DNA of 61,780 nucleotides from Candidatus Delongbacteria bacterium. GTDB taxonomy: Bacteria > UBA4055. This document shows, in pieces, positions 1,722 to 49,679 of the stretch. The position numbers and the translations under genes were made by a program. The DNA lies in the NCBI GenBank assembly GCA_016937995.1, contig JAFGVM010000066.1:1-61780 (forward strand), written 5' to 3'. Every line of letters starts with the position of its first letter. The stretch's first letter is position 1. The notes under the pieces were generated by a model. That model had not been told where the DNA came from. It saw only the letters and a program-made list of their open reading frames with translations, and did no database searches.

Positions 1722-2549
1722 ATGAATAAAAATTTTGTAGTAAGATCGTTAGTAGCACTAATAGCTGCACCTGTGATTCTATATCTTCCTTTTTTAGGGG
1801 ATCAATATTTTACTCTATTTATTTTTCTGATATCATTTCTTGGAACTAAAGAGCTTGTATCATTTTACGAAAAAAAGGAAGTATTTCTCAGCAAAACCGT
1901 AACATTTCTGGTTCCTTTAGTCCCAATATCTGTACTATTCTATGATCTTACTACCGGAATAGAAGTAGCATTTATTCTGGCTCTGATATTATTTTTAACA
2001 GAATTATTCAGAGGGAAAGAGAATCCGACCCAAATTGTGTCCGGTTATGCATTAGCATTCATTTATCTCGGTATTTTTCCTGCTGCCTTACTGGAAACTC
2101 TCAAGATCACTGAACCGATAATATTTATTTACATATACTCAGTTATCATGGCAACTGACATTTTTGCTTACCTGGGAGGAATGACATGTAGCAAAATGTT
2201 CAAGACCCATTCACTTGCAAAAAAGATAAGTCCCAAAAAGACAATTGAAGGTTCAATTTCCGGAATAATATTTGCGATTTTAACAGGAGTATTGATCTTC
2301 AAATACACTGCAATGTATGAAATGCGGGAATTGAGCATGATCAACGTATTGATACTTTCACTTATCATTTCGGTATTTGGGCAATTCGGAGATCTGTTCG
2401 AATCTATGTTGAAAAGAGATTCCGGAGTAAAGGACTCATCAAATATAATACCGGGACACGGTGGTATTCTGGATAGATTTGACAGTATTATTTTCATATC
2501 TCCAGTGGTTTTCATTTTTTTTAAATACATAATTTTTCTAAACAATTGA
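1722..2549 (+). CDS. cdsA: Phosphatidate cytidylyltransferase
   Basis: ISPKKTIEG and GDLFESMLKRDSGVKDSSNIIPGHGGILDRFDS signature. Confidence 0.95.
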   Translation: MNKNFVVRSLVALIAAPVILYLPFLGDQYFTLFIFLISFLGTKELVSFYEKKEVFLSKTVTFLVPLVPISVLFYDLTTGIEVAFILALILFLTELFRGKENPTQIVSGYALAFIYLGIFPAALLETLKITEPIIFIYIYSVIMATDIFAYLGGMTCSKMFKTHSLAKKISPKKTIEGSISGIIFAILTGVLIFKYTAMYEMRELSMINVLILSLIISVFGQFGDLFESMLKRDSGVKDSSNIIPGHGGILDRFDSIIFISPVVFIFFKYIIFLNN

Positions 2550-15200: not shown

Positions 15201-17328
15201 TATTTCTGGTCACAAGATTGTTGATTATCTGAAGACTTGAGTTGTATGAATGTATTCCAACGCTGTTAGCATTGTCCCTTACGATATTATTTCTGAAAAC
15301 AGGTTTGGTGGTCACATCATCTCCGTCTCTCCAGTGATATAGCACCCAGTAATAATCATTATCATGCAGAACACAGCCTTCAACGGTCGGAGATGCTTCT
15401 TCAGCATATACTACTTTAGTCATTCCCATCATAGTTTCACCGTTATCGGTACAATTGAATATCTCACTGTTAAATAATCTCACCTTTGAAAAATATTCGA
15501 TCTGAATACCTAGGGATGATGCAATGTCCTTAATCGCACAATACCCGATCCTTGTTGAATCGTTATCATCCATATCAACTCTCCAGTCGTTTACAAGATG
15601 GATACCACCCCAACCCGTAACGTCATCTACTGCACTGAATCTTATACTGTCTGTTGCATTACCTATGGCATTCATTGAACCCTGGATCTTAATATCGTAT
15701 GTATTTCTGAAAATAAATTCAACACCGGGATCTACTGTGAATACAGAATCATCAGGTACCATTATATCACCGTCAACATAGTATGGAGATCCTGAAGTAC
15801 CCCAAGTTCCTGTTGCATATCCACAGACTCCCTTTTCACTGTATAAAGCGAAACAAATATCATTTCCCGCATTTGTAAAAGAAGTACTTCCTGAATTATA
15901 TCCATCCAGAGGATTTCTCCAATACGCGTTAGTTGAGTTAGAGCTGGTCGATCTGGTACGAAAGTAAACATTACCCACATCATATTCAGTTGTGTCAGTC
16001 AATGCCTGAAATCCGATCCAGTAAGTACCAGCACTCAATGATATTGGTTTTTCAAAATCAAGTGCAATTATTTCTTCATAACCCGGGCTTGAGAAAGTTG
16101 TTATAGTACTGTCAATGGCAACTTCTCCGGGTTTTGATCCGGAATCATTATAAAATTTTAGTAAGTAAGAATGTTCTGCTGAAACTGTATTTTGAAACCA
16201 GCCTTTAACTTTAAATCTTTTTAAAGTGGTCTGAACCGGAAGTATAAAATCAGCTGCAAGTTCGGAATTATACGGGTCTATCACAGGATCAGTACCGGTA
16301 CTGGATACTTCCCAGTCGTAAAAGAAATAATAGTTTGAAAGGGTATTTATTGCACCCGTAATAACAACAGTTTCAGAAGGATACGGATAAGAAGCCCCTG
16401 CAGTTCGCCATAATCCTCCGCAGGCCGTACCAAAAGCATCGAGTTTATATCCTGCTCCGGGAACAAGGTCAAAACCCAGATCAAGTTTTGTTTTTACACC
16501 CGGAGTAGAAACTGCTATAGTTCTTGATTCAAGAACAGCATCTGAAGAATTTAGAAGCCTGACAGTTACATTTCCTGCAGCATTAGGATAAACATTAACA
16601 CTGCTTAATGTAGAATTTGAAAGAACATCAAATACAAGACCGTCAGTATAATTTGTATAATTTCCTCCACCTCCGATATTATTGTCAAAAGGTCCCACAG
16701 ATTCTGTCAGAATGTCAACATCTGCAACTTTCCAGTCGTAAAAATAATAATAGTAAGCATTTGCTACGCTTGACCCGGTAATATTTACATTATCTGAAGT
16801 ATACGGGTAAGGAGTTGTTGATGCATTTCTTGCAAAAGCGGGAGTACTTCCTTTTGCGTCTATCTTATAGTTTGTGCCGGCAGGTATGAATATATCCAGT
16901 TGCAGAGGGGTCTTGTTATTAATATCATCTGAACTAACTGATGTTATAACCGAATCAATTACTGTACCGGATGAATTAAGAACTCTGATAATAACAGTGC
17001 CTGCAGAAGTAGGATAAACCGAAACACTTCTAAGTACTGTAGGTACCAGAACGTCGAATTTTAATCCGTAGGTTCTATCAGAATAAGAAGAAAGAGGGGT
17101 TGGACCGTAATCTTTCTTTCCGACATGTGTTTCAAATACCTGTGCACTCATACTCAGATCCTGGTTCTGATCCAGTTGGTCCCAGACAATTGCACCGAGA
17201 CTTTTAGATTCGAGAACTCTGGAATAAGTTGTATCTTCTGGTAATATCTGCTTACTTGATATGTAACTTTCTTTTGCGAACATGACAAATACAGTCACGA
17301 GCAACAATAACAGGATAGGTTTCTTCAT
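9250..17328 (-). CDS. 2692-aa secreted multidomain surface protein (parallel beta-helix repeats, CHB_HEX_C/Fn3-like modules, cleaved-adhesin-like domain)
   Basis: Signal peptide; GGGI/N-rich beta-helix repeats; SPCING...IDIGAxE modules; IYYTTDGTDP; Fn3 motifs LSW...YNVY; ENWLISP...IDDI. Confidence 0.8.
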   Translation of the reverse strand: MKKPILLLLLVTVFVMFAKESYISSKQILPEDTTYSRVLESKSLGAIVWDQLDQNQDLSMSAQVFETHVGKKDYGPTPLSSYSDRTYGLKFDVLVPTVLRSVSVYPTSAGTVIIRVLNSSGTVIDSVITSVSSDDINNKTPLQLDIFIPAGTNYKIDAKGSTPAFARNASTTPYPYTSDNVNITGSSVANAYYYYFYDWKVADVDILTESVGPFDNNIGGGGNYTNYTDGLVFDVLSNSTLSSVNVYPNAAGNVTVRLLNSSDAVLESRTIAVSTPGVKTKLDLGFDLVPGAGYKLDAFGTACGGLWRTAGASYPYPSETVVITGAINTLSNYYFFYDWEVSSTGTDPVIDPYNSELAADFILPVQTTLKRFKVKGWFQNTVSAEHSYLLKFYNDSGSKPGEVAIDSTITTFSSPGYEEIIALDFEKPISLSAGTYWIGFQALTDTTEYDVGNVYFRTRSTSSNSTNAYWRNPLDGYNSGSTSFTNAGNDICFALYSEKGVCGYATGTWGTSGSPYYVDGDIMVPDDSVFTVDPGVEFIFRNTYDIKIQGSMNAIGNATDSIRFSAVDDVTGWGGIHLVNDWRVDMDDNDSTRIGYCAIKDIASSLGIQIEYFSKVRLFNSEIFNCTDNGETMMGMTKVVYAEEASPTVEGCVLHDNDYYWVLYHWRDGDDVTTKPVFRNNIVRDNANSVGIHSYNSSLQIINNLVTRNKFGVKISGYYNNPDAFPIMINCTITDNDTGSDYEGGTGLECLNLGDTKIINTIISGNDETGGNQIIIGGKGPQFYNCLTDTGPSEFGGEGGGEYFSGLYLYCINEDPAFQNSTFFTLSQSSPCINGGMKDVSAFDLSSVDIYGSVRQYDSAADFLDRIDIGAVEYQGNPSPMRSTMPEFSLLPGNYVGSQTVNLTAEPTGSSIYYSTDGTYPATIYSGALSINTDTTIRAISYYSGIDTSFVSSAEYKIYPNLMSDTVSGEWSGVIYVDGDLFVPRDSTLTINPGTEVIFLGDYGVEVVGRILAEGAENDSIHFHAENPSIGWKGFDEEDISFFDENFASVYDYCIFNDSQGTLFYAKNKYVEVKNSRISGNEKVSDFQSKNKMLYCDIYNNSYGGYILDTYGQDSLTIKYSKIHHNTCTANGVAGIIDLGYSNSELSYCQIYNNSSTGAEAPVSSRGTNLITNNVIHSNEAKYGGGIFISEMFGNYGTRIYNNTIVFNKSAKGGGIYIEEENDPHIVNNIIYYNTSTAQEGQIYLLDTKQYPGFTHCDIQGGKDAFVIGEEGNFSGLYKYCIDEHPEFLDSTTFDLRLRRYSPCVNYGTVVADSLNLGALDILGNNRFKSTIDIGAIEMPLTPDPEIVLLPQFTPFAGIHDPDVTVTITSPTPGATIYYTTDGTDPDESSNLYTTPIYLTTTTTLKAKGYYTGIEPSFITEAEYKVFPNSISGNVYGTWYKSQSPYYINGNITIPNDSTLTIEAGVEVIFTGYYSCFVEGQLLAQGAENDSITFRPYDENGKWCQIIFDETLETNGASELGYCILEDTSNDQITDGPLKMRYYSNVHVHHSTFRNNISESGGGIVLKSSSPLIENCEFYNNESTMFSGSALRLYEYSDPVVINCKIFNNTGTPVDINDSSPQIINNLIANNQENGWGGALYIYGDSYPVITNNSIVNNSAGYGGGGIHMRGYIDFPSPIIRNTLIYGNTAPEGSQVNINGLDCQPEFNYCNIEGGKEAFGEEGPLLPDYKYLNNISADPKYLGTGPYPYSYKGNSPCINAGSPDSTSLNLPPVDLAGRTRIFNGYVDIIDIGPYEHNGLAMVQYSGSLTDSVRWVADIIEIAGDVTASGMDSLKIVPGVHINFKDDYRVEITDSLVANGTEKDKIIIENAKGGFVLNNTSKGKASAHMKHWIYQADSVIIDDMISITGYDSVAIDSSTFYNVSIIINGTAGKAASSGKKITNNRLTFSSASKGNARTAIKIFGDDKVALINNEITNADTGIVIQGSGLKANGSGKKITNNRLTFSSAVKDKGTTVGILFDNTAVDSLYHNSIYDMGEGIKAINQTSTIEVLNNIIWNDDDQITQIIDPDSKLILKNNDISGTTDYNTGGNSGNINDDPLFVNPAIGDLHLNESSPCIGQALVILGYPSYHAPDIGALEYGLSFSTPYNLAATGDLGVINLSWNSPYKSNKILTQYYVYRDGTKIDSTSSTNYSDTDVENNVEYTYHITAMYSTPDGESGPSNYITFTALTEFSSPSYLVGGLSGEAIELSWILESSSKALVQFNIYKNGTLIDSCEAMSYTDTTSMTNMTSYDYYVTSVYEYPTAESVASDTISVTMYKPPVNLTYETSGSTVFISWDTPVAKSEILKPVSKQNKERREDPVRSDPKDALTGYLIYKNNILLYTITDPDKDYFYDYGVVDGTHEYKIKATYTGGNSGYSSAMNVTVSGGITYALNEGFEGSSWPPDGWTLYDGDGINTSSPEQMNWFHLVEADAGSGIVAHSGLNCAGSVSMEGATENWLISPAVDLTGNTNVASLRYYTTYAYTPSEHYKIMVSTATNSPEDFTELLYEFTPSSKIFDTWYETELDLSDYAGQTVYLAWIHEQESNMFIILDDITVSKYNTTELATPANVTLVASGGNITITWDRIMKDQYLTYIVYSSDDLITWTIEESNISDTSWTESIVNARKFYRIVATDSEPTKKVKEINSETRIR

Positions 17329-17522: not shown

Positions 17523-20500
17523 TTACCATACCTCCAATGCCTCTGTCAACATGGCAAGCTGCTGTTCTTCTTTGAATCCGAGCTGCTGCATTGCACCTGA
17601 TGGACAAACTGCTGCACAACTTCCACAACCCTTACAAAGAGCAGAATTTATATGGGCAAATTCCTTACCGTTCCTCCAGAATAATTCAGGAGCACCGTAT
17701 GGACAAACAGAAACACACATTCCGCAACCGACACAGACATCAAGATCGACCTTAGCAATGTTAGCTTCTGCAATATATTCATCTGAACTGATGATCATAG
17801 TAGCTCTTTCCGCCGCAGCTTTGGCTTGAGAAATAGTTTCTTCCATTCCCTTTGGAGAATGTGCAAGACCTGCAAGGAAAACTCCTTCAGCAGAGAAATC
17901 AACCGGACGAAGTTTAACATGAGCTTCCATGAAGAAATTATCTTCATTCAGAGGTATCTTTAACATTTGTGAAAGTTCAACTGCATCCTCCTGTGGAACC
18001 ATAGCGGAAGAAAGTATCACTCTATCAGGATACATAATAGTATCCTTACACATGATATGATCTTTATATGTTGCCCTCAGACCTTTACTCTTAAGCATTT
18101 CCTGTTTTGCATCAATGTCTATTACAGGTTTGGTGTCAATATCGTACCTAACAAAAACAACTCCAAGATCTCTGGCTTCTCTGTAGTATTTCTCACTGAA
18201 TCCGTAAGTCCTGATATCTCTGTATAGGATATGTATATTCATTTTAGGGTTCAATTCCTTTAATCGGATGGCATTTTTTATTGATTGAGTACAGCAAACC
18301 CTTGAACAATATGGCCTGTTCTCATCTCTTGAACCAACACACTGGACAAGAACAATATTTTTCATTTTCTTATATTCATTGATATTTTTCTCAAAATCCT
18401 GCTCAAATTCAAGCTGGGTAATTACATTTTCATTTTTGCCGTATAGATATTCTTCAGGTTTGGATTCATTTGCTCCGGTGGCAATTATAATTACGCCGTG
18501 GTCATATTTAATATCCTCATCCTCCCTGTTGAGATGTACAGTCGTTGTAAAGTTACCTACATATCCCGAAATATCTTTGATCTTTGCTTCTGTGTAGATA
18601 GTGATCAATTTATTATCTGCAACTTCATCTCTGAGTTCTGTCAGATAATCACCAACCTTTTTACCTTCAACATTCTCATCAAGTCTGTTAAGATTACCTC
18701 CGGTTCTGTCACTTTTTTCAATTATAGCAACTTCATAACCCTGATTTGCGATTGAAAGTGCGGAAGTTAAACCGGAAAGTCCTCCTCCAACGACAAGAGC
18801 TTTCTGTGTTACTCCAAGTGCTACAGAATGTAGAGGTTCAAGAAGTCTTCCTTTACTGACAGCAATTTTAGTAAGTCTTTTAGCTTTTTCAGTAGCAGCC
18901 GGATGATCATCTTTATGTACCCAGCTGCACTGGTTACGGATATTAGCCATGTCAAACAAGAACTTATTAAGACCAGCTTCTCTCATAGTTTCCTGGAAAA
19001 GTTCTTCATGGGTACTTGGAGAACAGGATGAAACAATTACCCTGTTAAGCTTATATTCTTTTATTATCTCTTTCATTTGTTCCTGAGTATCCTGTGAGCA
19101 GGTAAAAAGGTTATCGGATGCATATACTACATTAGGTAATGTTTTTGCAAATTCAACTACACTTTTTACATCAACAACACTACTGATATTTATACCGCAA
19201 TGACAAACGAATACACCAATTCTAGGTTTTTTACCGATCACATCTATTTCTTCAGGATATACTTTTTCGGTTATCTCTGTTCCTCTCACTTCAGCAAGTA
19301 TCTCAGCAGCATTTGCCACAGCTCCGGAAGCCTGCATTACTGTTTCAGGAATATCTTTTGGAGATACTGCAGGACCGCAGACAAAGATACCTGGTCTTGT
19401 AGTCTGGATAGGGGAGATACCGAAATTATCAATAAAATTATATTCATTTAATCTTACACCAAGTCTGTCCGACAATTCAATAGAAGTATTCTGTGGGTGA
19501 AGACCAATAGATAGAACTACCAGATCGAATTCCTCAATTCTGTTCTTACCGTCATCCTCTACATAATAAAGTTCAAGATTACCACTTTCTTCTATCTCTT
19601 TGATCTTTCCCACACGACCTCTAACAAATCTTACATTTGCATCTTTCGCTTTATCGTAATATTTATCAAAATCCTTACCGTATGCTCTAATATCCATGTA
19701 GAAGATAGTTGGTTCAACTGAGCTTACATGTTCTTTAGCTATAATAGCTTCTTTCATTGTGTACATACAGCAGACAGATGAACAATACGGCATGTCAGAG
19801 TCCTCTGTTCTTGACCCGACACACTGGATCCAAGCAATTTTTTTAGGTACTTTTCCGTCAGCAGGTCTTTGGAGATGACCTTCGTAAGGTCCGGAAGCAG
19901 CAAGAATTCTCTCGAACTGAATACTTGTTACAACATTTTTAAATCTGCCATAGCCATATTCATGCATTGCAGTCGGGTCATATTTCTCAGCTCCGGTTGC
20001 TACAATGATCGATCCAACATTAATTTCTTCTTCATGATCGATCATATCATGAACGATCGCTTCGGCTTCACATACAGTTACACATTCCATACATCCAGAA
20101 CAAATACCGCACTCAAGACATCTTTTAGCTTCTTCTCTTACTTCTTCTTCAGAGTAACCGAGTTCGTGTTCATCGAAATTCTTTATTCTTTCTTCAGCTT
20201 CCTGGAATCTCATCGGTTTTCTTTCCTGACGCATAACGAACTGCTGAGGTTCTTTTGCAGGGATCAGGTCCTTTTTTGCAACTCTTCCTTTTTCCATATC
20301 CTGACCTGTCAGGTATCTTTCTATAGAAATAGCAGCCTCATAAGCCTGACCTACAGCTTCAACAACTGAAGCCGGTCCCTGAACAACATCACCGCCTGCA
20401 AAAACATCAGGAATATTAGTTCCGAATGTCAATTCATTTGCAACAATAGTATTCCATGGTGTGGTTTTAACTTTACTGTCTTCTAATATTTTAAGGTCTG

Positions 20501-21983
20501 AAGTCTGAGAAACTGCAGCCATTACATTATCAAAATCTTCGACAAATTCATTTCCTGTCGGTTCAGGTCTTCTTCTACCGGAATCATCTCTTGCACCAAG
20601 TTTCATTTCAGAAAATTTAATAGATTTCATCTTGCCGTTCTCACCGATGATCTCGATAGGATTTGTAAGGAATTTAAATTTAATTCCCTCCTCTTCTGCT
20701 GCAACTATCTCATGCTTTTCTGCCGGCATTTCTCTTCTTGTTCTACGATATATTAAAGTAACATCAGCACCGAGTCTTTTAGCTGTTCTTGCACAGTCAA
20801 TAGCGGTGTTTCCACCACCTACAATAGCAACTTTTTTACCGATATGGACTTTTTCACCCCAGTTCACTTTCTTAAGGAAATCAATACCACCGAAAACACC
20901 TTCAAGGTCTTCACCTTTTATTCTAAGTGATTTACTTAGTTGCGCACCGATACCGACGAAGAATGCTTTATATCCTTTCAGTCTAAGTGCTTCAATATCC
21001 TCATGAGAATTTATCGGATGATTAACCTTGAGATCAACACCTTCTTTCAATATCTGCTCAATTTCCCAGTCAAGTTCATCTCTGGATAATCTATATGGAG
21101 GGATGCAAGAACGCATCATACCACCTGCTTTAGCATCTTTCTCAAAGATAGTTACCTGATAACCTTTCTGAGCAAGATAATACGCACAGGTCATACCTGC
21201 AGGACCTGCACCAATGACAGCAATTTTTTCTCTTGTCTTTGCAACAGGAGCTTCTTTCTTATCAAATTCATCCTGATGAGAATGTACATAGTCAGCAATG
21301 AATCTTTTTATTGATCTGATAGCCAAAGGATCGTCATAGTCACCTCTTCTACAGTCAAGCTCACAAGGATTGTGACAAACTCTACCACAAACAGAAGGGA
21401 AAGGATTATTTTGTCTGATAAGGTCATAGGCTTCTTTATATTTTCCTTGAGATACCAGAGCTATATACCCCTGAACATGGATTCCTGAAGGGCAGGATAT
21501 CTGACAAGGAGGTAATTCGTTTTTATCAATTACAAAGGCATTTGGAGATGCTTGAGGATAAGGCTTATATATAGCTGTTTTTTCAACAAGTTTTTCGTCA
21601 AATATTGAAACAGTGTTAATGGGGCAGATAGAAGCACATTCACCACATCCGGTACATTTATCAAGGTCGACAAATCGTGCTCTTTTATTAACTTTAACCT
21701 TGAAATTACCTGCTTCTCCATCTACAGAAACAAGATCGGTATTTGTTAAAAGGTCTATATTCAAATGTCTTCCGGCTTCAACGAGTTTTGGAGAGATCAC
21801 ACACATTGCACAGTCATTCGTAGGGAATGTCTTGTCAAGCTGAGCCATAGTACCACCAATAGCCGGTGTTTCTTCCATTAAATATACTTTAAAGCCTGAT
21901 CCTGCAAGATCAAGAGAGGATTGTATCCCTGCAATTCCTGCTCCGATCACTAGTACGGAACCTACTTTGTCTTTACTTTCCAT
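17523..21983 (-). CDS. hdrA: Large HdrA-like flavoprotein with inserted GltD/NfnB-type NAD(P)H oxidoreductase module (HdrL-like)
   Basis: LDKTFPTNDCAMC; CVGSR..CSSVCC; three FAD GxGxxG motifs plus the NAD(P)-binding GGGNTAIDCAR; PPCQISCP..CGRVC; C-terminal 2x[4Fe-4S]. Confidence 0.85.
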   Translation of the reverse strand: MESKDKVGSVLVIGAGIAGIQSSLDLAGSGFKVYLMEETPAIGGTMAQLDKTFPTNDCAMCVISPKLVEAGRHLNIDLLTNTDLVSVDGEAGNFKVKVNKRARFVDLDKCTGCGECASICPINTVSIFDEKLVEKTAIYKPYPQASPNAFVIDKNELPPCQISCPSGIHVQGYIALVSQGKYKEAYDLIRQNNPFPSVCGRVCHNPCELDCRRGDYDDPLAIRSIKRFIADYVHSHQDEFDKKEAPVAKTREKIAVIGAGPAGMTCAYYLAQKGYQVTIFEKDAKAGGMMRSCIPPYRLSRDELDWEIEQILKEGVDLKVNHPINSHEDIEALRLKGYKAFFVGIGAQLSKSLRIKGEDLEGVFGGIDFLKKVNWGEKVHIGKKVAIVGGGNTAIDCARTAKRLGADVTLIYRRTRREMPAEKHEIVAAEEEGIKFKFLTNPIEIIGENGKMKSIKFSEMKLGARDDSGRRRPEPTGNEFVEDFDNVMAAVSQTSDLKILEDSKVKTTPWNTIVANELTFGTNIPDVFAGGDVVQGPASVVEAVGQAYEAAISIERYLTGQDMEKGRVAKKDLIPAKEPQQFVMRQERKPMRFQEAEERIKNFDEHELGYSEEEVREEAKRCLECGICSGCMECVTVCEAEAIVHDMIDHEEEINVGSIIVATGAEKYDPTAMHEYGYGRFKNVVTSIQFERILAASGPYEGHLQRPADGKVPKKIAWIQCVGSRTEDSDMPYCSSVCCMYTMKEAIIAKEHVSSVEPTIFYMDIRAYGKDFDKYYDKAKDANVRFVRGRVGKIKEIEESGNLELYYVEDDGKNRIEEFDLVVLSIGLHPQNTSIELSDRLGVRLNEYNFIDNFGISPIQTTRPGIFVCGPAVSPKDIPETVMQASGAVANAAEILAEVRGTEITEKVYPEEIDVIGKKPRIGVFVCHCGINISSVVDVKSVVEFAKTLPNVVYASDNLFTCSQDTQEQMKEIIKEYKLNRVIVSSCSPSTHEELFQETMREAGLNKFLFDMANIRNQCSWVHKDDHPAATEKAKRLTKIAVSKGRLLEPLHSVALGVTQKALVVGGGLSGLTSALSIANQGYEVAIIEKSDRTGGNLNRLDENVEGKKVGDYLTELRDEVADNKLITIYTEAKIKDISGYVGNFTTTVHLNREDEDIKYDHGVIIIATGANESKPEEYLYGKNENVITQLEFEQDFEKNINEYKKMKNIVLVQCVGSRDENRPYCSRVCCTQSIKNAIRLKELNPKMNIHILYRDIRTYGFSEKYYREARDLGVVFVRYDIDTKPVIDIDAKQEMLKSKGLRATYKDHIMCKDTIMYPDRVILSSAMVPQEDAVELSQMLKIPLNEDNFFMEAHVKLRPVDFSAEGVFLAGLAHSPKGMEETISQAKAAAERATMIISSDEYIAEANIAKVDLDVCVGCGMCVSVCPYGAPELFWRNGKEFAHINSALCKGCGSCAAVCPSGAMQQLGFKEEQQLAMLTEALEVW

Positions 21984-23303: not shown

Positions 23304-24161
23304 TTATTTGATAGGATTATCTTTTCCGACGTTCCACTCATAATAAGCACCATCATATACTTTTACATTTTTAAATCCTGCTACATCTGTTAAAGCCATG
23401 AATACGATACCAGCTCTCACACTTGAAGCACAATAAAGAATTATTTCTTTATCGGCAGTAATACCTGCAGATTTTGCAGCGGCAATGATCTCATCCTTAG
23501 ATTTTAAAACACCATCTTCTTTGAAAACATTTACATGGTCAAAATTAACTGCACCTTCAATGTGACCTTTTTTATTAATGTTAGCATCATCTTTTTCTTT
23601 ACCGTTGTATTCATCAGCGCTTCTAACATCAACAATAACAACCTTATCATTTTTCAGGTTGGCTTTAACATATTCTATATCCGCATAAATTGCTGAATTA
23701 ACAGCAGGTGTGAATGTTGCAGCTTCGATCTCAGTTGCTTTTCCTGTGATCGGTTTTCTTGCCTTTTTCCAGCCCTTAATATGTCCGTCAAGAATGTCGA
23801 CATCCTTAGCGCCCATATATTTAAGTATCCAGTATAATCTTCCGGCTGCTTTATTTGATCCTGTATCATAAATAATGATCTTTTTATCAGCACTAATTCC
23901 CTGCTCACCCAGGATCTTTGCGATCTCTGCTGCAGGTTTCAGCATACTCTTGATACCCTCGGTATTATATAAAGCAGCATGATCAATGTTAACAGCACCT
24001 TCAATATGTTTTTTGCTGTAATCCGCAACAGGTTTTGTTGAGACAATAATTGCTTTTCCGTCCTTAGAAAGCTTAGCAGCATCTTTTGCAGATATTATAC
24101 CTGCAAAAACAAATTGAACACTGATCAACAGTACTACGATTATTCCAATATATTTTTTCAT
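23304..24161 (-). CDS. Exported tandem-domain sulfurtransferase (TST/SseA-like rhodanese)
   Basis: Signal peptide; HIEGAV twice; inactive N-domain YDTG; active loop YCASSVR; VYDGAYYEW. Confidence 0.9.
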   Translation of the reverse strand: MKKYIGIIVVLLISVQFVFAGIISAKDAAKLSKDGKAIIVSTKPVADYSKKHIEGAVNIDHAALYNTEGIKSMLKPAAEIAKILGEQGISADKKIIIYDTGSNKAAGRLYWILKYMGAKDVDILDGHIKGWKKARKPITGKATEIEAATFTPAVNSAIYADIEYVKANLKNDKVVIVDVRSADEYNGKEKDDANINKKGHIEGAVNFDHVNVFKEDGVLKSKDEIIAAAKSAGITADKEIILYCASSVRAGIVFMALTDVAGFKNVKVYDGAYYEWNVGKDNPIK

Positions 24162-24177: not shown

Positions 24178-25227
24178 TTAAAACTTAACCTGTAATTGAA
24201 CAAGGATTTCGTCATTTTTCACTTCAACTTCTTCTGCTTTGTACAAATAGTTTATTTGTAATCTTGTCCAATCGTTAAAGAAGTAATTTAATCCCCAAGT
24301 TATTATACTTTGAGAATCTAGATCTTCATCAATGTCAGGATCAAAAGTTTCATATTTAATTACTGGTTGAAGATCCCATTCTGTCATATACATTGCCTGT
24401 AAAAAATATCCATCTCTTTGGATTGAACCTGTGTGGAACTCCACTTCTTCGCCACTTCAACCGCCGCCTGTTGTATAAGAACCTTCGTCTTTACCTTGAA
24501 TGTATTCAGCCTGTAATAAAAAATTATCATATTTGAATTCTAATTCTCCTCCAAAACGAGTTTTTTCATCATCTGGCTCGCCAGCAACAATAGGAGCAGA
24601 TGTTCCAAATTTATAACTACCACCAATACTGATCATATCATGTGGTGTTATTACTAACCTGCCAGTAAATGCTTTATTATTGTTGTCATCTAGGTCTCCA
24701 AGTTCGTTTCTTTTTGTCGCATTAGTGAGTGAAAGACCATATTTAAGGTATGTTCCATATTTCCCATTAATCATAATACCCATATCTCTATCAGGATATA
24801 CTAAGGTATTTACAACTGTAGATCTTTTAATCGTATGCAAAGATTGACATGGTGTGTTCATTTCAAGACCAAAAACAGATTTGAATCTACCTAACGAAAT
24901 TTTTGCATAAGGATCAAGTCTTGAATATGTTGCAAATCCATCAATCAAATAAGGGATTCCGTCTTCTGAAGCATATGGGCTAAGTTCCATTAAAAGGTAG
25001 TAACTAAAATCGTAAGGTATATTACCCACAACACCCAAACGAGCTCTGTTAAACGAAAAAGTTGTCAGATCTTCAACATTATTTTTGTACTGATGATATT
25101 CAAATTGTGATTGTAAATATCCAACGACACTAACACCTTCATCAGAAGAAGCTTCCATGCATTGTGAATATATTACTGAAGTTAACGATGCTACAATCAA
25201 AAAAGACAATAAAAATATTTTCTTCAT
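24178..25227 (-). CDS. OprO/P-like outer-membrane porin, 349 aa, predicted selenoprotein (Sec257 at TGA 24457-24459)
   Basis: Track ORFs 24457..25227 and 24178..24444 are in frame: SYTTGGG-TGA-SGEEVEFHTGSIQRDGY. The joined protein is a complete barrel ending QLQVKF, with a hairpin after the UGA. Confidence 0.8.
24423..24460 (-). promoter_or_regulatory. Putative bacterial SECIS of the porin
   Basis: Apical GUGG-AGUU-CCAC with loop 16 nt after UGA and G second in loop; basal UUGAA/UUCAA pairing. Confidence 0.5.
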
Positions 25228-25291: not shown

Positions 25292-26305
25292 TTATGGTGA
25301 AACTTCCAATGGAAGGTCAACAATAGCTGCTGCATCCCACTTATGTGTCTCAAGATCATCATATATCATTGAGTTTGCACCGTTTTTTAAACTAACAGCA
25401 TCAAATCCAAGCACATTAAGATAAGCAGTGATCATTGAAGAAGTTTGACCTGTCCAACAATACGTTACTATTTGCTTGCTAGGATCAAGATTAGTTATCT
25501 CCAAAGGATTTATTCTGTATGCGCCATCAATATTACCATAAAACTCTACATCAGTTGTTGTCCAGTAGTTGTTAATGAAATATTGAGTTGGATCTGCAAG
25601 AACTGTAGTAGCTGCGATACCTTTAAATCCACCGGCTAACATTGCATTAACTCTTTCGGCTAATATCTCAGCACCGTCCGTAGAAGCAACAGTTAAATCA
25701 AAATCAGGAAGATCAAAAACGATATTATCAGCGATATCGCCAGGTGCTGCTGTCCAATTAGGATCGTCCAGCTGAGAACATGAAGCAGACCAGCTATCAT
25801 ATTTTGTTATTATTGTATCTGCAACAGCATCCATTACATCAGTATGCCATCCACTCATTCCCCACATGATAGAGAAAGCATCTGAATATCCGGACAATCT
25901 TAAAGCAACCACCGCATGACATGCTGATTGTCCACTGTAGCAAACTACTGCAATAGTTTTATCTCCTGCGTTTGCAGCAGCAGTAACGACATCAGTAAAA
26001 GGAACATTTACCGCACTTGGAATATGTCCAGCAGCGTAAGCTGAAGCTGATCTGATATCCATGATGTAATAATCATTTAAAGGATCAGTGTCAGTCATGA
26101 TATCATTTACTGAACTTGCTGTTTTAATCCATGATGTAAGAACAGAAGTGATATCCATTCCATTGTCTTCCATATAATCCTGCATAATTTCGAATGCCGT
26201 TAGTGTAGGTACCGCAGGATCATCACTATCATCCTTACAACTTGTTAAGAAGATGCTCGTTAGTGCGAACATTACTACAAGTAACATTGTCCATTTCTTT
26301 TTCAT
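25292..26305 (-). CDS. Two-domain rhodanese lipoprotein
   Basis: Lipobox LTSC; GHIPSAVN; two active-site loops, CYSGQS and CWTGQT. Confidence 0.88.
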   Translation of the reverse strand: MKKKWTMLLVVMFALTSIFLTSCKDDSDDPAVPTLTAFEIMQDYMEDNGMDITSVLTSWIKTASSVNDIMTDTDPLNDYYIMDIRSASAYAAGHIPSAVNVPFTDVVTAAANAGDKTIAVVCYSGQSACHAVVALRLSGYSDAFSIMWGMSGWHTDVMDAVADTIITKYDSWSASCSQLDDPNWTAAPGDIADNIVFDLPDFDLTVASTDGAEILAERVNAMLAGGFKGIAATTVLADPTQYFINNYWTTTDVEFYGNIDGAYRINPLEITNLDPSKQIVTYCWTGQTSSMITAYLNVLGFDAVSLKNGANSMIYDDLETHKWDAAAIVDLPLEVSP

Positions 26306-26379
26306 TTTTTACCCCTTTTTCTATATTTTAGCCACAACCACTAGAGCATTATTGCTCCAGGTCTACCCATTATTTAAGA

Positions 26380-26448
26380 GTTTTGAGTTGTGGGTTTTGA
26401 GTTATGGGTTGTTTTCTCACAACTGACAACTCTCCACTCACAACTGAG
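26380..26448. repeat. Intergenic inverted heptamer repeat array
   Basis: TTTTGAG TTGTGGG TTTTGAG TTATGGG facing CTCACAA CTGACAA...CTCACAA. Confidence 0.5.
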
Positions 26449-26476
26449 AATTAAAGGCGTACAGCCTTTTAATTCT
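26447..26476 (-). promoter_or_regulatory. Putative SECIS of the Sec-rhodanese (extends into the 3' UTR)
   Basis: AGAAUUAAAAGGC-UGUAC-GCCUUUAAUUCU; 12-bp stem with one bulged A, loop 17 nt after UGA, G second in loop. Confidence 0.7.
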
Positions 26477-27023
26477 AGCCTCAACCACCTTCGTCGACTT
26501 CTTCTTCCTCGACGTCAGGAGCTGAAGGATCGAGCCATTTTTTGTAACCGCCTTTTAGGCTCTTTACATTTTTATAACCCATTTTCATCAGAGTATGAGC
26601 CGCAAGTGCAGCTCTTCCGCCTGATAAACAATAAACTACTATTTCCTCATCTTTTTCAGGCATATCGACCATCAGATCATCATTCCAGAACTTCTTGTTG
26701 TCGATCTTAAATTCAAGAAAACCTCTTGGAACGTTCACAGTAAATGCTTCAGGATAAGGGAATTCATCAGTTTCTTCATCAGCCTGATTGATAAAACCTT
26801 CGTCAAATTCTGAAGGTTCTCTTACATCGATGACCAAACGGAGCTCTTTGTTATCAAGTTTTGCCTTGAAATCCTCGTAAGATATCTCTGTAATATCCTT
26901 CTTAGCTTCCTGAACCATTTGCTTATTAGATGGATAAACACCATTCTCAGCAAAACCGCTTCCGCACCCAACTACAAAAAGGAGTGCTGAAAGCAATGCA
27001 GATAAATAAACAAGTCTTTTCAT
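26475..27023 (-). CDS. Single-domain rhodanese lipoprotein, 182 aa, predicted selenoprotein ending GG-U-G
   Basis: Start MKRLVYL at 27023, lipobox VVGC, active loop CLSGGR; 3' end GGT GGT TGA GGC TAG followed by a hairpin. Confidence 0.8.
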
Positions 27024-27039: not shown

Positions 27040-28251
27040 TTATAGAGCGGAAAATTTTCCGGTCTTCTCATTCCATTTTACGAATATATATGCCAGTAGT
27101 ATGAATCCAAGAACCATTAACACAGATCCTGTATAACCTAAATAATCAGGTAAGAAGATCTTCTGAGATTCAGGTAGAAAACTTTCAAATACAGGAACAA
27201 TGAAAACCTTTGATACAGGTGCCATAACAGTAAAACCAAGTATAGACATCCATAGCTTTAGATGACCTTCACCGGCTCTCCATAAAGTACCGATCGCACA
27301 TCCACCTGCTATAGTCATTCCAAGTCCGAATATCGTACCACCGATAAGTGCCTTTGACCAGAAACTAGGATAAACAGCCTTCATTTCGATAGCTCTAACA
27401 GCTGTCTCAGCTACATTTCCCACACCGAAATACTTTAGTACCGTAAATCCGAAGATAAGTATAAGTAAACCGATCATGATAGCTACCGGAGCAGAGGATT
27501 CACCTGTCATAAAAGGTTCTCTGAATGCTCTGACGATACAGTATCTTGATCTCTGCAGGATAAATCCAAGAGTCAGACCTATGATAATGTGCCATCCGAG
27601 TATCTTCATAGCCGCAGAACCCTCTGCATTATAACCGCTGATAACATAGATAATTCCAGCTAGTAAAATCCAGGCAAGCCATCTCTGCCATCCCATGCCT
27701 TCTTTAGTTCCAGGCAAGAAAGTATATGACTTACCCATACTTACGTTTGGAAATGCTTCCATTTCCCAGAGGATATATTTCATCGCAAGAAAAGTACCGA
27801 TCAAAAATCCAGCAGTCAAAAATAATGCTCCGCCTGATAAAGCCGGAACACCAGTGAAGAATCCACCTGTAGTACAGCCAACACCGACCATTGATCCTAT
27901 ACCCATTAAAGCGCCACCTATCAAACCTTTAACAAGTTCTCCCTTAGGTGCTATCTTGATGCTAAATTCCTTTGAGAAAAGAGAAGATACAAACGCTCCA
28001 AGTACGATCATGATATTGAGAATAGCGACAGTGTGCATATTGATCGCTGTTGAAGTTCCTAGACTATCTACTCCCATAGACCCGAAAAGATTCTGACCGA
28101 TATTTAAATATCCTCCGCTTCCTCCCCAGGGATACTTAATTACAAAAAGCAGAATATTGAGAATAGCAAGAAGAACACCACCGAACCACATTGGCCAGCT
28201 TTTTGCAAAGATACTGTCATATAATTCTCTTAATATACCTTTTTTAAACAC
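27040..28251 (-). CDS. yeeE: YeeE/YedE (TsuA-like) thiosulfate/sulfur-compound transporter
   Basis: Multi-TM; GVGCTTG, QRSRYC, GMTIAGGCAIG; follows tusA/yeeD. Confidence 0.88.
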   Translation of the reverse strand: MFKKGILRELYDSIFAKSWPMWFGGVLLAILNILLFVIKYPWGGSGGYLNIGQNLFGSMGVDSLGTSTAINMHTVAILNIMIVLGAFVSSLFSKEFSIKIAPKGELVKGLIGGALMGIGSMVGVGCTTGGFFTGVPALSGGALFLTAGFLIGTFLAMKYILWEMEAFPNVSMGKSYTFLPGTKEGMGWQRWLAWILLAGIIYVISGYNAEGSAAMKILGWHIIIGLTLGFILQRSRYCIVRAFREPFMTGESSAPVAIMIGLLILIFGFTVLKYFGVGNVAETAVRAIEMKAVYPSFWSKALIGGTIFGLGMTIAGGCAIGTLWRAGEGHLKLWMSILGFTVMAPVSKVFIVPVFESFLPESQKIFLPDYLGYTGSVLMVLGFILLAYIFVKWNEKTGKFSAL

Positions 28252-28263
28252 GGTATACTCCTA

Positions 28264-28491
28264 TTATTTCTTTTTGATGTAGAATTTAGTTTCACCATCT
28301 AATTCTTCCATTGACAGGAATTCATTACCTGTTTTCTCGCACCATGCAGGAACATCTGTCTTTGAGCCGGGATCTGTTCCGATCATTTCAAGAACCTGTC
28401 CTGCTTCCATGCCTTTAATTGCCTTGCTAAGCTTAATGATAGGCATTGGGCATGATAACCCTTTACAATCCAAACTTTGATCAAAATTCAT
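28264..28491 (-). CDS. tusA: TusA/YeeD family sulfur carrier
   Basis: LDCKGLSCPMP, TDPGSKTDVPAWC. Confidence 0.92.
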   Translation of the reverse strand: MNFDQSLDCKGLSCPMPIIKLSKAIKGMEAGQVLEMIGTDPGSKTDVPAWCEKTGNEFLSMEELDGETKFYIKKK

Positions 28492-31110: not shown

Positions 31111-32073
31111 TTACATTATAAAGTCTTGCTTTTCATTTTCGCAGAAAGATACCATAGCCGGTTTTTCATTAATGTCCAGACCTGCGGTATAGTTAAATCT
31201 TTCCTTTACTTCTTTTTCAACTTTTTTATTCATGATCCTTAGATCAAGGTCAACAGGGCATGCAGTTACGCATGAACCACAGTCAACACATCTTCCTGCA
31301 ATATGAAGATTCCTGATCAGGTGGAAAATAACCGAATCAGTTACTTCTGGTGTCTTACCTATCCATTGAGGGTCGTTCTGATCAACGAAGCATTCATTAC
31401 AATAGCACGATGGACATACGTTCCTACAAGCATAGCATCTGATACATTTTGAATATTCCTCTTCAATGTACTTCCATCTTTCTTCAGCAGTTTTGTCTTC
31501 GAAGTCAGTAACAACTTTAAATTCTTCAGCTACTTCAACTTCAACTCTAGGCTCACCAATGAAAGTGTCATATTCTTTAGCATCAGGATAACGGCAGTAG
31601 ATACATGAGTCACTTAGAACTTCTTTCAAAGGAACTTTTTTCTCAAAAGCTCTTCCTTTCAAAGTAACTTCATCACCTTCAACTTTTATATCAATAACTT
31701 CTTTTCCTTCAGTTATGGTCTGTATCTTTTTCTTTTCAAAAACACCGTTACAAGGAACACCTATGATATGAGCCTGCTCTCTTTTGATCTGATTTTCAAC
31801 AGTGTAAAGAACTACAGAACGGGCGTCACAACCTTTGGATACGATACCGATCTTTTTATAATCTTTCTTTAGTTTTTTACGATCTTTAGTCAAATAAACG
31901 GTTAGATTATTCCTGCATGTATTATCAAAGATAAGTTGGTCTGCATCCTCTGGTTTAGTAATAAAAATAGGAGTAGCAGTGTTCGGTAAAGAACCTTTTC
32001 CGTAACCGATAACAATATCTACAGTTTTATCTTCAAGGAGTTTTTTTACCTGAGATCTCAATTCGTTAATCAT
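31111..32073 (-). CDS. flxC: FlxC (FdhB-like 4Fe-4S protein)
   Basis: KGCDAR, CIRCYACRNVCPSCYC, HIAGRCVDCGSC. Confidence 0.8.
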   Translation of the reverse strand: MINELRSQVKKLLEDKTVDIVIGYGKGSLPNTATPIFITKPEDADQLIFDNTCRNNLTVYLTKDRKKLKKDYKKIGIVSKGCDARSVVLYTVENQIKREQAHIIGVPCNGVFEKKKIQTITEGKEVIDIKVEGDEVTLKGRAFEKKVPLKEVLSDSCIYCRYPDAKEYDTFIGEPRVEVEVAEEFKVVTDFEDKTAEERWKYIEEEYSKCIRCYACRNVCPSCYCNECFVDQNDPQWIGKTPEVTDSVIFHLIRNLHIAGRCVDCGSCVTACPVDLDLRIMNKKVEKEVKERFNYTAGLDINEKPAMVSFCENEKQDFIM

Positions 32074-32522
32074 TATTTAACTCCTTCTAATTCTTCAGTT
32101 TTCGCTCCATGCTTTACCATTCTTTTCGCAGGTCCAATCTTTTTGATATCTTCGGTGACCTTTGTAATGATATTTGCAAATTTTTCACCTTCTCCTGCTG
32201 AAACCCATGAAAATTGAACTCTTTCAGGTTCAATGCCTATGAACTCAAGGAGAGGTTTTATCGTAGAAAATCGTCTACGTGCGATGAAATTACCTGACAG
32301 GTAATGGCAGTCGCCCGGATGTCAACCAGAGACAAGAAGACCGTCGTATCCGCTTTGTAATGTCTTCATTATAAATAAAGGATCAACTCTACCTGAGCAA
32401 GGGATCCTGATAACTCTGACATTAGGTGGATACTGAATTCTTGAAACTCCTGCAAGATCTGCTCCCGCATACGAACACCAGTTGCACAGTATCGCGAGGA
32501 TCTTAGGTTGCCACTCTTTCAT
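32073..32522 (-). CDS. mvhD: MvhD/FlxD 2Fe-2S subunit, selenoprotein (Sec67 at TGA 32322-32324), 149 aa
   Basis: CNWCSY, CSGR, then SG-TGA-HPGDCHYLSGN...WVSAGEG; reads on to TAA overlapping the flxC ATG. Confidence 0.93.
32289..32305 (-). promoter_or_regulatory. Putative SECIS apical hairpin
   Basis: AUUACCU-GUC-AGGUAAU, stem starts 16 nt after UGA. Confidence 0.75.
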
Positions 32523-43415: not shown

Positions 43416-44144
43416 TCACTTAATAAAAAAAGTTTTGGTGGTCACTTTTTTACCGCCAACTTCTATCATGGTCCAGCCAGGATTAGTGTGTTTAATGTTA
43501 AATGTAGACGGCTTTTTACCTATTTGGAACCAGGTTGATGGTGTAATTGTGAAACTGAAATTTTCTTTTTGAACAGAATGATCAGTATGATAATGACCGC
43601 AGAAAACATTATTAATTCTTTTATTCTGATTTAAGAATGAAGTAGTATCCAGATGATTAGATAATGGATATCTTGAATCCATGTATTTACAATTGGCCAG
43701 TGAAGGAGGGTGATGCATGAAAAGAAGAACATTACTTCCATCATCATTCAGATCTAATTCTTCCTGTAATCTTTCAAGGTCAAGATATTCTGAAGAAGTA
43801 TCACAGAAAATCAAAGTATGCTCTTTTATTTTCATTGAATAAAAAACTGAACCATTCTTATAATGATCTTCCAGAGAAAATGCTTTAACAAAATTAGTTA
43901 CATTATCATGATTCCCGGGCAGAACAGCATAATTTATACCTTGGAGCGTTCTTTTTATCCATTCATATGGAGTATCATCAACATCAAGTGCGAGGTCTCC
44001 GGTAATTATCAGAATATCAAAATAATGTTTTTTAATTTGATTTAATGCCTGGAGATAATTATCCCTAAGGTTTACCTCATTCATGATCTTGTCTTTTTCA
44101 CTAACATGAATATCACTTAATTGTGCGATAACTAATTTGTTCAT
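43416..44144 (-). CDS. CpdA/Icc-like metallophosphoesterase
   Basis: SDIH, TGDL, PGNHD, HHPP, CGHYH, TPSTWFQ. Confidence 0.88.
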   Translation of the reverse strand: MNKLVIAQLSDIHVSEKDKIMNEVNLRDNYLQALNQIKKHYFDILIITGDLALDVDDTPYEWIKRTLQGINYAVLPGNHDNVTNFVKAFSLEDHYKNGSVFYSMKIKEHTLIFCDTSSEYLDLERLQEELDLNDDGSNVLLFMHHPPSLANCKYMDSRYPLSNHLDTTSFLNQNKRINNVFCGHYHTDHSVQKENFSFTITPSTWFQIGKKPSTFNIKHTNPGWTMIEVGGKKVTTKTFFIK

Positions 44145-44321
44145 TTTCAAATCCAGCTTTAAAACATTCAATATTTGGACAACATAGGTAGAATATGCCA
44201 ATAATTAATGCACAAAGCAATAAGAAATAATAAGAAATAAATCTTATCAGTGTAAAAATATTTAAAAATTGAGTTGTTATTTCAGAATTATTATGTTAAC
44301 TTATTGTCTGTAATATTGACC

Positions 44322-44388
44322 TCTGGTCATGGAATTCTGTGAAAATCAGAAGCTGCCCCGCAACCGTTAGAGCCGGATCTTTACCAGA
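44322..44388 (+). ncRNA. Cobalamin riboswitch, compact form
   Basis: GGAA-TTCTG-TGAAAAT-CAGAA-GCTGCCCCGCAACCGT...AGCCGGA, closed by TCTGGT/ACCAGA; upstream of a TonB-dependent receptor. Confidence 0.8.
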
Positions 44389-44426
44389 ACAGTCGCTGCA
44401 AAAATGCAGTTTCTTCGAGGGGAGAT

Positions 44427-49583: not shown

Positions 49584-49679
49584 GGGCTTGGATGGAGACC
49601 TGGTGGCTCCCGCGGACTTCAAATCCGTAAGCGAGGCATTGATACTGTCTTGGGTGAGTTCGATTCTCACACTAGCCCG
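49584..49679 (+). tRNA. selC: tRNA-Sec (anticodon UCA)
   Basis: GCGGA-CTTCAAA-TCCGT anticodon arm, TGGT D-loop, long variable arm, GTGAG-TTCGATT-CTCAC T-arm, G discriminator; CCA not encoded. Confidence 0.93.

Follow-up and report, generated by a model that had tools for sequence, protein, structure and literature searches.

Is the UGA at the end of an annotated rhodanese lipoprotein gene a stop codon, or is it read as selenocysteine (Sec)? The question is raised by a gene on contig JAFGVM010000066.1 (assembly GCA_016937995.1) of Candidatus Delongbacteria bacterium; the whole stretch of 61,780 nucleotides (nt) that was analyzed is called the window below. With readthrough of the UGA, the coding sequence occupies 26475..27023 on the minus strand, and the translated product, named here the tail-rhodanese, would comprise 182 residues ending in Gly-Gly-Sec-Gly (GG-U-G), followed by TAG. 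The UGA at 26483-26481 is, on comparative grounds, decoded as Sec with high likelihood, and the tail-rhodanese is very probably a new subtype of rhodanese selenoprotein whose Sec tail cannot be seen in annotation. Since readthrough adds only two residues, standard annotation misses such a tail.

The gene starts with ATG at 27023, with AAGGAG located 8 nt upstream, and 16 nt separate the ATG from the stop of the preceding yeeE-like gene. Its translation reads MKRLVYLSALLSALLFVVG-C-GSGF ... VVYCLSGGR ... WLDPSAPDVEEEEVDEGG. The 3' end has the form DPSAPDVEEEEVDEGG-TGA-GGC-TAG, so that the codons after WLDPSAPDVEEEEVDEGG are TGA (26483-26481), GGC (26480-26478) and TAG (26477-26475).

A signal peptide with the lipobox VVG-C was read from the sequence at 26964..27023 (minus strand). 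By the lipobox consensus rule for bacterial lipoproteins, cysteine (Cys) 20, encoded at 26966-26964, is predicted to carry the lipid modification and to begin the mature protein. In the lipobox region LFVVG-C20, C20 was invariant in 35 of 35 aligned orthologs, and G19 and G21 were conserved in at least 90%. The rhodanese domain spans residues 49-164 (26532..26879, minus strand; Pfam Rhodanese PF00581, 66 bits against a cut-off of 22.2), and its active-site loop is C132-LSGGR, with the Cys132 codon at 26630-26628. In the translation, the domain is followed by an acidic, Pro-containing linker, DPSAPDVEEEEVDE (residues 165-178; 26490..26531, minus strand), and by the GG-U-G tail (26478..26489, minus strand), in which Gly179 and Gly180 precede the UGA, i.e., the proposed Sec181, and Gly182 (GGC).

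Orthologs were searched for in a collection of 5.8 billion proteins, which yielded 247 matches at E ≤ 1e-3; the best 120 were listed. The 41 closest matches were full orthologs sharing the signal peptide, the rhodanese domain and the acidic linker. Among their C-termini, 24 were Cys-tailed (21 GGCG, 1 GGCGG and 2 GGC), and the UGA of the tail-rhodanese aligns with the Cys of these tails. The remaining 17 of the 41, the window protein included, are annotated to stop at GG, exactly two residues short; they include NOR45344.1, MDO9577344.1, MDA3838943.1, MDA3885413.1 and NQV19211.1. G179 and G180 were invariant among the aligned orthologs. Moreover, the in-frame GGC-TAG after the UGA mirrors the C-G-stop with which the Cys forms end, which argues against an ordinary stop at this position. 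The two classes thus bear the classic signature of a Sec/Cys pair, the Sec forms probably having been cut at the UGA by gene callers.

A tree was calculated for 38 of the 41 orthologs; the fragments P0019, P0028 and P0038 were dropped, and the tails were removed before alignment. The GG-ending proteins fell into two clades, with 10 members (support 95/99) and 4 members, plus one isolated sequence; at least three changes of state between Cys-tailed and GG-ending are needed. Members of the larger clade were as little as 54% identical to the window protein, with the GG ending and the linker length being kept. The occurrence in deep clades suggests that the GG-ending state is old, unlike what would be expected of a dead truncation. 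A further difficulty for the ordinary stop is posed by the GG-ending protein P0030, which has Ser at the rhodanese site; if it were truncated, no reactive Cys would therefore be left in its mature protein.

Directly after the UGA, a candidate bacterial selenocysteine insertion sequence (SECIS) hairpin begins (26442..26480, minus strand; 15-16 pairs in the minimum free energy, MFE, fold), which lies mostly 3' of the TAG, within the 3' untranslated region. Its core of 12 pairs is formed by the arms 26447-26455 and 26468-26476 together with a GGC/GCC top, with one bulged A on the 5' arm. The loop UGUAC (26463-26459) is separated from the UGA by 17 nt, and the calculated stability ranges from -12.8 to -14.0 kcal/mol.

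Bacterial SECIS elements have been described as having a loop of 3-9 nt and an upper stem of 4-16 base pairs, a G in the first two loop positions that is mostly followed by G or U, a spacing of 16-37 nt between UGA and loop, and an MFE ≤ -7.5 kcal/mol (PMC13188914). In our own implementation of these criteria, the tail-rhodanese hairpin agreed with the description on all four points. As a background, 30 of the 2987 TGA triplets of the whole window (both strands) passed; 20 of these had G[G/U], and two also reached -13 kcal/mol or lower, the tail-rhodanese site included.

Stop codon usage was determined for the 44 genes of the window, and TGA was the rarest (5 genes, against 28 with TAA and 11 with TAG). 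Among the five TGA-ended genes, only the tail-rhodanese has a hairpin behind its stop, with -14.0 kcal/mol compared to -0.2, -0.5, 0.0 and -4.1 kcal/mol for the others, again contrary to what an ordinary stop would lead one to expect. In the terminator scan, the stem behind the next gene was called, whereas the tail-rhodanese hairpin was not, because it has no T-run. No comparable hairpin was observed after the Cys codon in the 10 Cys-form loci, the best value being -8.6 kcal/mol; in the closest ortholog, a Cys form from locus L001, the corresponding region reached only -0.8 kcal/mol.

The organism uses Sec, since the window holds both a tRNA-Sec and an MvhD-like gene with UGA at a known Sec site. 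The tRNA-Sec, with anticodon TCA, was found by ARAGORN at 49584..49679 on the plus strand, and it scored 58.4 bits against Rfam RF01852 (gathering score 47). The MvhD/VhuD-like gene (32073..32522, minus strand), split by annotation at its in-frame UGA (32324-32322, in LLVSG-U-HPGDCH), is followed 23 nt downstream by a hairpin with loop GUC and -12.6 kcal/mol. The MvhD/VhuD family is an experimentally verified selenoprotein (PMC13188914), and the gene served as an internal positive control for Sec decoding. The presence of the tRNA-Sec and of other Sec genes in the same window speaks against an ordinary stop in the tail-rhodanese as well. An alternative code, in which TGA would stand for Trp or Gly, was rejected: TGA terminates four other genes, and the in-frame TGAs of window genes fall only at Cys columns.

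Two further genes, at 1722..2549 and 43416..44201, also end in TGA, one codon and a stop, and both were rejected as readthrough candidates because no hairpin follows either of them; the TGA-codon-stop arrangement is therefore not significant by itself. The TGA upstream of the HdrA-like gene at 41464 was a plain upstream stop and not a case of readthrough.

A third in-frame UGA was found in the same gene cluster, in a Porin_O_P-family porin (24178..25227, minus strand). Here the TGA (24459-24457) lies within SYTTGGG-U-SG, and past it the frame continues for 92 homologous residues to the conserved C-terminal ...LVQLQVKF. In the best 120 of 655 matches, the corresponding column 257 contained Cys in 112 homologs, the sequence was cut just before it in 5, which are the closest relatives, and Trp and a gap were present in 2 and 1, respectively. 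The motif across homologs is SYTTGGG-C/U-[GS]G, and C23 and C127 are also conserved. Locus L001 contains two tandem porins (L001:10508-11590 and L001:11627-12730), each with TGA at column 257 and the frame continuing. Three cases are thus known at the DNA level, with frames of about 92-95 residues running on to the C-terminus. The comparison marks the porin as a clear Sec/Cys pair and a strong candidate for a Sec porin. The two homologs with Trp at the Cys/Sec column are P0180 and P0240, where the codon could be a genuine TGG, or else a TGA that the depositor's pipeline rendered as Trp by applying a code in which TGA means Trp.

The porin UGAs are followed by hairpins of related geometry: loop AGUU at 16 nt and -6.2 kcal/mol in the window, loop GGUCG at 17 nt and -13.4 kcal/mol in the first L001 porin (A), and loop AGUU at 17 nt and -3.2 kcal/mol in the second (B). 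The hairpins behind the porin UGAs cannot be terminators, because the reading frame continues. The tail-rhodanese hairpin (UGUAC, 17 nt, -12.8 kcal/mol) matches the hairpins of the window porin and of both L001 porins in its xGU loop 17 nt past the UGA. The missing T-run and this shared distance to in-frame UGA sites are again at odds with an ordinary stop.

The initial annotation had proposed a Sec hidden in a C-terminal GG-U-G. The end of the open reading frame, the TGA-GGC-TAG and the hairpin with its UGUAC loop 17 nt after the UGA were all found where it had placed them. Its proposal is borne out by the homolog tails, by the tRNA-Sec in the window, and by a hairpin that fits the bacterial SECIS description and was not called a terminator. 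It had also held an exported selenoprotein to be unusual, which is less so in view of the candidate Sec porin at the same locus and of the outer-membrane selenoproteins listed in PMC13188914.

Several observations weigh against Sec insertion and are in line with an ordinary stop. The TGA form is known at the DNA level from the window alone, the other 16 GG-ending proteins being known only as proteins. When genome contigs were scanned (best 80 of at least 420 relatives, at least 600 stretches), 10 tail-bearing loci were found among the matches listed, none of them with TGA. A change from TGY to TGA requires one base, so an ancient truncation is formally possible. Hairpins after stop codons are common: under looser SECIS criteria, 4 of the 44 genes have a passing one, so terminators can mimic SECIS elements, and with 3 of the 43 other stops passing, the hairpin alone is weak evidence. 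The chance occurrence of TGA-codon-stop in two other genes points the same way. Rfam assigned no family to the hairpin, and a permissive scan of 26380-26540 gave chance-level hits only, the coverage of bacterial SECIS elements by Rfam not having been checked. Finally, selA, selB and selD were not found in the window.

What the tail does was approached by comparing it with the rhodanese active site. In the aligned orthologs, position 132 was Cys in 28 of 35 and Ser in 7 (six Cys-tailed, and the GG-ending P0030 mentioned above), with the tail present in all. A profile search against 1.84 billion representatives (50% identity clusters) gave 26,739 matches, and the best 150 were examined. Of these, 56 were of single-domain size; the C-terminus was G-(G/A)-C-(G)(G) in 27 and GG in 1, Cys occurred among the final four residues in another 5, and 23 are without a tail. 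A lipobox-like N-terminus was present in 23 of the 33 tail-bearing representatives among the best 150. The linker after the rhodanese domain was variable among these representatives, ranging from 18 to 51 residues of low complexity, and was acidic, Pro/Ala-rich or Lys-rich.

The tail therefore appears to be the conserved reactive site of the tail-rhodanese family. It is read here as a tethered carrier arm and not as an accessory to the protein's own active site, because it is kept where Cys132 is Ser, because the linkers vary, and because its motif is of the SoxY type. The swinging arm envisaged in the initial annotation agrees with such linkers; that the arm shuttles sulfur is something we infer. 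The idea that it would serve the protein's own CLSGGR site did not hold, given the seven orthologs with Ser and an intact tail.

The gene neighbourhood was examined in the window and in nine related loci. The minus-strand operon of the window starts with an HdrA-like gene, the Sec-containing MvhD gene, two genes for Fe-S proteins (one of them AsrA/sulfhydrogenase-beta-like), and AsrB/gamma-like and HdrC-like genes. It continues with a TusA-family sulfur carrier (28264..28491, minus strand; PF01206, 93.5 bits) and, directly upstream of the tail-rhodanese, a YeeE/YedE-family membrane protein (27040..28251, minus strand) with conserved Cys126, Cys238 and Cys318. The tail-rhodanese is followed by a structured spacer of 169 nt, a 337-residue rhodanese lipoprotein (25292..26305, minus strand), the porin, and a 285-residue SseA/ExtH-like rhodanese with two domains and a signal peptide (23304..24161, minus strand). 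The mature part of the 337-residue lipoprotein starts with C-KDDSDD, which we take to resemble the surface-export signal of Bacteroidota lipoproteins, and this protein may face outward.

The module of tail-rhodanese, rhodanese of about 330 residues and Porin_O_P porin is conserved in the window and in L001 (Cloacimonadota), L002 (Calditrichota) and L003, L005 and L006 (Bacteroidota), and it is often accompanied by the rhodanese of about 285 residues. The adjacent YeeE, which the initial annotation had named, besides other rhodaneses, as a partner of the arm, lies directly upstream of the tail-rhodanese in the window, L001, L002, L003 and L062. This partnership is thus plausible in some lineages, but four Bacteroidota loci (L004, L006, L007 and L009) have upstream an octaheme cytochrome of the tetrathionate-reductase family TIGR04315 (550-583 bits, cut-off 375) together with a cytochrome b. 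The octaheme-linked Bacteroidota tail-rhodanese ends in EVGGC, and two loci encode the cytochrome b as a fusion with a PAS domain. DsrE2-like carriers were also observed in the relatives' loci. The common denominator of these loci may be a periplasmic carrier serving an importer or a periplasmic reductase.

The YeeE-like protein takes part in the same exchange. In the window it is intact, with Cys318 in AGG-C-AIG, whereas the close homologs P0448, P0460, P0461 and P0463 end in ...MT[IL]AGG, just before this Cys. YeeE/YedE is an already catalogued selenoprotein family (PMC13188914), and the four cut homologs are probably its Sec forms. The gene for MDA3885411.1, a member of the P0448 cluster, shares its contig of 23718 nt with the gene for the GG-ending rhodanese MDA3885413.1. 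In this lineage or in close relatives, Sec thus appears to take the place of Cys at a GG-Cys site in three stations of one envelope pathway.

The spacer downstream of the tail-rhodanese contains, besides the candidate SECIS, two more hairpins at 26340..26441 (minus strand), identified by an inverted-repeat search as a long imperfect inverted repeat and a short GC-containing stem. A 147-nt region folds into the three hairpins with -47.9 kcal/mol (z = -5.0). The inverted repeat has 32-nt arms in which TCAGTTGTGAG occurs twice, and TCAGTTGTGAG is found nowhere else in the window. The two hairpins may represent a terminator, a processing site, or a regulatory or regulator-binding site.

Outside the cluster, two very large open reading frames lie downstream on the minus strand (9250-17328, 2692 residues; 17523-21983, 1486 residues). 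The Rfam scan of the window at gathering score returned only the tRNA-Sec and a cobalamin riboswitch. The latter, of the AdoCbl-II type (44313-44390, plus strand; 40.5 bits against 36.5), is located directly upstream of a TonB-dependent receptor gene (44427-46667, plus strand), whose product shows weak similarity to BtuB.

Among known systems, SoxY provides the closest parallel for the tail. Sulfur intermediates are bound covalently to the Cys of its C-terminal GGCGG, from which they are offered to other periplasmic proteins, as described in the accessible part of PMC6067878, which cites Sauve et al. 2007. A Gly-flanked C-terminal Cys is shared: the tails here are GGCG, GGCGG (in the relative P0039 and at locus L062), GCGG or GGC, and GG-U-G in the window, although this is a resemblance of motif only. 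Unlike in SoxY, a long linker of variable composition joins the arm to a rhodanese domain with a lipid anchor, and Cys is replaced by Sec in one lineage. Neither the tail-rhodanese nor its neighbours gave a Pfam or NCBIfam match to SoxY or SoxZ, and SoxY is not mentioned in the catalogue of 119 selenoprotein families of PMC13188914. By analogy, the tail-rhodanese would be SoxY-like in its working without being a member of the SoxY family.

The rhodanese domain itself was best matched, among solved structures, by the tandem rhodanese 6mxv (6e-26) and then by Sud of Wolinella succinogenes (1qxn), and a look-up in the ESM Atlas returned generic rhodanese clusters only. Sud is a periplasmic polysulfide-sulfur transferase that feeds bound sulfur to a respiratory reductase. 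It is likewise a single-domain rhodanese, and the match (E = 1.6e-9) covers the active-site half of the domain, to which the similarity is confined. In contrast to the tail-rhodanese, Sud carries sulfur on its rhodanese Cys and, to our knowledge, has neither a lipid anchor nor a C-terminal Cys/Sec arm.

The prokaryotic catalogue of 119 selenoprotein families contains five rhodanese forms, with the motifs UxxS, UxxG, CxU, UxxG and UxxxxU (PMC13188914). With these, including NF041203 and TsoB, the tail-rhodanese shares the rhodanese domain, the Sec/Cys pair and the occurrence in selenoprotein-rich anaerobes. Judging from the CLSGGR pattern, the listed UxxG would be the active-site loop; in the tail-rhodanese, by contrast, the active site has Cys and Sec is in the tail, and none of the listed motifs is a C-terminal GG-U-G. 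Its scores were below the NCBIfam cut-offs for NF041203 rhodanese_LYCAU (49.3 against 115) and NF045694 TsoB (25.5 against 805); of the Haft & Tolstoy 2025 families, as named in the table of PMC13188914, TsoB alone gave a weak match.

The position of the UGA also has precedents. The SaoC gene shows the tandem stops UGA-UAG together with a stem of 7 bp and a loop GGU (Haft & Gwadz preprint, 10.1101/2022.07.06.499078, as far as its accessible text goes), and in its printed sequence we counted 17 nt from UGA to loop, the same as in the tail-rhodanese. In SaoC (Cys-Sec-COOH) and in KCU-star DUF466, according to the same partial source, the UGA is at or near the annotated stop, the true stop follows at once and the SECIS lies in the 3' untranslated region. 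However, there is no sequence relationship, and both are small cytoplasmic or metal-related proteins with a CU dipeptide as their tail.

At the level of gene order, the locus resembles that of ExtH/ExtI in Geobacter sulfurreducens, where a rhodanese lipoprotein gene lies beside a porin gene in a chalcogen-reduction cluster (accessible parts of PMC5877670 and PMC13510729). The ext cluster uses multihaem cytochromes instead of YeeE/TusA/Hdr, and the match scores were far below the cut-offs. A C-terminal arm on ExtH is not described in those parts of the two sources.

Based on these comparisons, the following mechanism is proposed. The tail-rhodanese would be exported as a lipoprotein, anchored through Cys20, with its rhodanese domain connected by the flexible acidic linker to the Gly-Gly-Sec-Gly tail, and the hairpin after the UGA would be the SelB-binding SECIS element. 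The chalcogen of the tail, Sec here and Cys in most relatives, would act as a tethered covalent carrier of sulfane sulfur in the form of a seleno-persulfide or polysulfide adduct. The arm would collect sulfur from its envelope neighbours: the two further rhodaneses, and the porin, which bears the conserved Cys/Sec. In the window, the arm would pass it to YeeE in the inner membrane and from there to cytoplasmic TusA and the Hdr/sulfhydrogenase-like reductases; in the Bacteroidota relatives, the recipient would be the periplasmic octaheme reductase. The loading of the arm with sulfur, and the direction and partners of transfer, carry about even to slightly favorable confidence by analogy. The explanation as a whole, combining Sec insertion, the SECIS and the sulfur carrier relay, is regarded as somewhat better than an even proposition.

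A wider version is put forward only tentatively and is rather doubtful. Sulfane sulfur might be relayed covalently across the whole envelope on a chain of Gly-Gly-Cys/Sec sites, the stations being the porin with three invariant Cys (one of them Sec here), the Sec-tipped rhodanese, YeeE (with Sec at Cys318 in close relatives) and TusA. The lineage might then be converting these stations one by one from sulfur to selenium chemistry. If true, neither a selenium counterpart of the SoxY arm nor a porin that uses covalent catalysis for transport would have a known precedent.

Certain observations count against the sulfur-carrier role, which has analogy and gene neighbourhood as its basis. For the YeeE-like protein, the porin and the rhodaneses alike, every match in NCBIfam was below the curated cut-off; the best were YedE/FdhT (115.9 against 350), ExtI (39.8 against 150) and ExtH (67.6 against 200), and these point partly to selenium metabolism rather than sulfur. 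It is thus conceivable that Sec is inserted, but that the locus imports or traffics selenite or selenide for selenophosphate synthesis, with the arm binding selenium and with YedE/YedF-like import. The best match of the membrane protein is indeed the selenium metabolism membrane protein YedE/FdhT, the TusA-like protein also matches YedF, and both the only NCBIfam match of the porin (ExtI) and one of the matches of the 285-residue rhodanese (ExtH) bear the names of a selenite/tellurite-reduction operon; ExtI has been implicated in selenite and tellurite reduction in Geobacter (accessible part of PMC5877670).

Nevertheless, the YedE/FdhT, ExtI and ExtH matches fall far short of the curated cut-offs, and TusA outscores YedF (55.9 against 38.9 bits). 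The operon also includes genes for HdrA/HdrC/MvhD and AsrAB/sulfhydrogenase-like reductases, the relatives have DsrE2-like carriers and octaheme tetrathionate-reductase cytochromes, and the selenoenzyme of the Geobacter ext cluster has now been assigned to polysulfide respiration, according to the accessible part of PMC13510729. Selenium trafficking is accordingly considered unlikely.

Less likely still is a redox function, in which Sec181, paired in a selenosulfide with Cys132 or with the Cys of a partner, would cycle like the C-terminal centre of thioredoxin reductase (TrxR) and would reduce periplasmic polysulfide or disulfides. In mammalian TrxR, Sec is the penultimate residue and precedes Gly on a flexible tail (Gly-Cys-Sec-Gly), and a layout of UGA, Gly codon, stop and SECIS has reportedly been used to express the enzyme in E. 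coli. The Sec beside Gly on a flexible C-terminal tail recalls this enzyme, Cys132 is kept in the majority of orthologs, and Sec is favored in S-S bond chemistry (accessible part of PMC13510729). However, the tail (GGUG/GGCG) has no vicinal Cys-Sec pair, so that the TrxR analogy drawn in the initial annotation is a loose one; fold, compartment and SECIS type differ as well. The orthologs without Cys132 keep the tail all the same, no electron-donating domain was found in the protein by Pfam and NCBIfam scans, and the motif is closest to the SoxY carrier GGCGG, found exactly in L062.

On the evidence set out above, the least probable explanation is an ordinary TGA stop in a protein whose ancestor lost its Cys-Gly tail through a TGY-to-TGA change, the hairpin being a terminator or an mRNA-stabilising stem.

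Recoding near the C-terminus, rhodanese selenoproteins and periplasmic or outer-membrane selenoproteins are already known, and outer-membrane beta-barrel and TonB-receptor selenoproteins are listed in a 2026 review (PMC13188914). The new elements are Sec on a carrier arm, the arm-bearing rhodanese family itself and the Sec porin. A rhodanese with a C-terminal GG-U-G is absent from the catalogue of 119 families in PMC13188914, as is a Sec porin, the catalogue containing no OprO/P-type porin. NCBIfam (June 2026 release) likewise has no Sec porin, and none of its models reaches the cut-off for the tail-rhodanese or the porin. No description of a rhodanese with a C-terminal GGC/GGU arm or of a Sec porin was found in the literature searched (titles and the beginnings of abstracts). 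The terms rhodanese, porin, outer membrane, C-terminal and YeeE do not occur in the main texts of deep-Sep and BSepDB, nor do rhodanese, porin and YeeE in one BSepDB supplement.

With Sec decoding of the UGA as the favored reading, the tail-rhodanese adds a type of selenoprotein that is hidden from standard annotation, with Sec at the tip of a tethered arm and not in an enzyme active site. With Cys tails, the family of arm-bearing rhodanese lipoproteins is widespread. The way in which sulfur compounds pass through the outer membrane and the periplasm in sulfur reducers and disproportionators has been called unknown (accessible parts of PMC13510729 and PMC13490349). The module of porin, rhodaneses and armed carrier, located beside YeeE or an octaheme reductase, is a concrete, testable candidate for such a sulfur route. 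The exchange of Sec and Cys at GG-C sites in three proteins of the proposed relay marks their reactive residues, and it can serve as a natural experiment for asking why sulfur gives way to selenium in the trafficking of sulfur.

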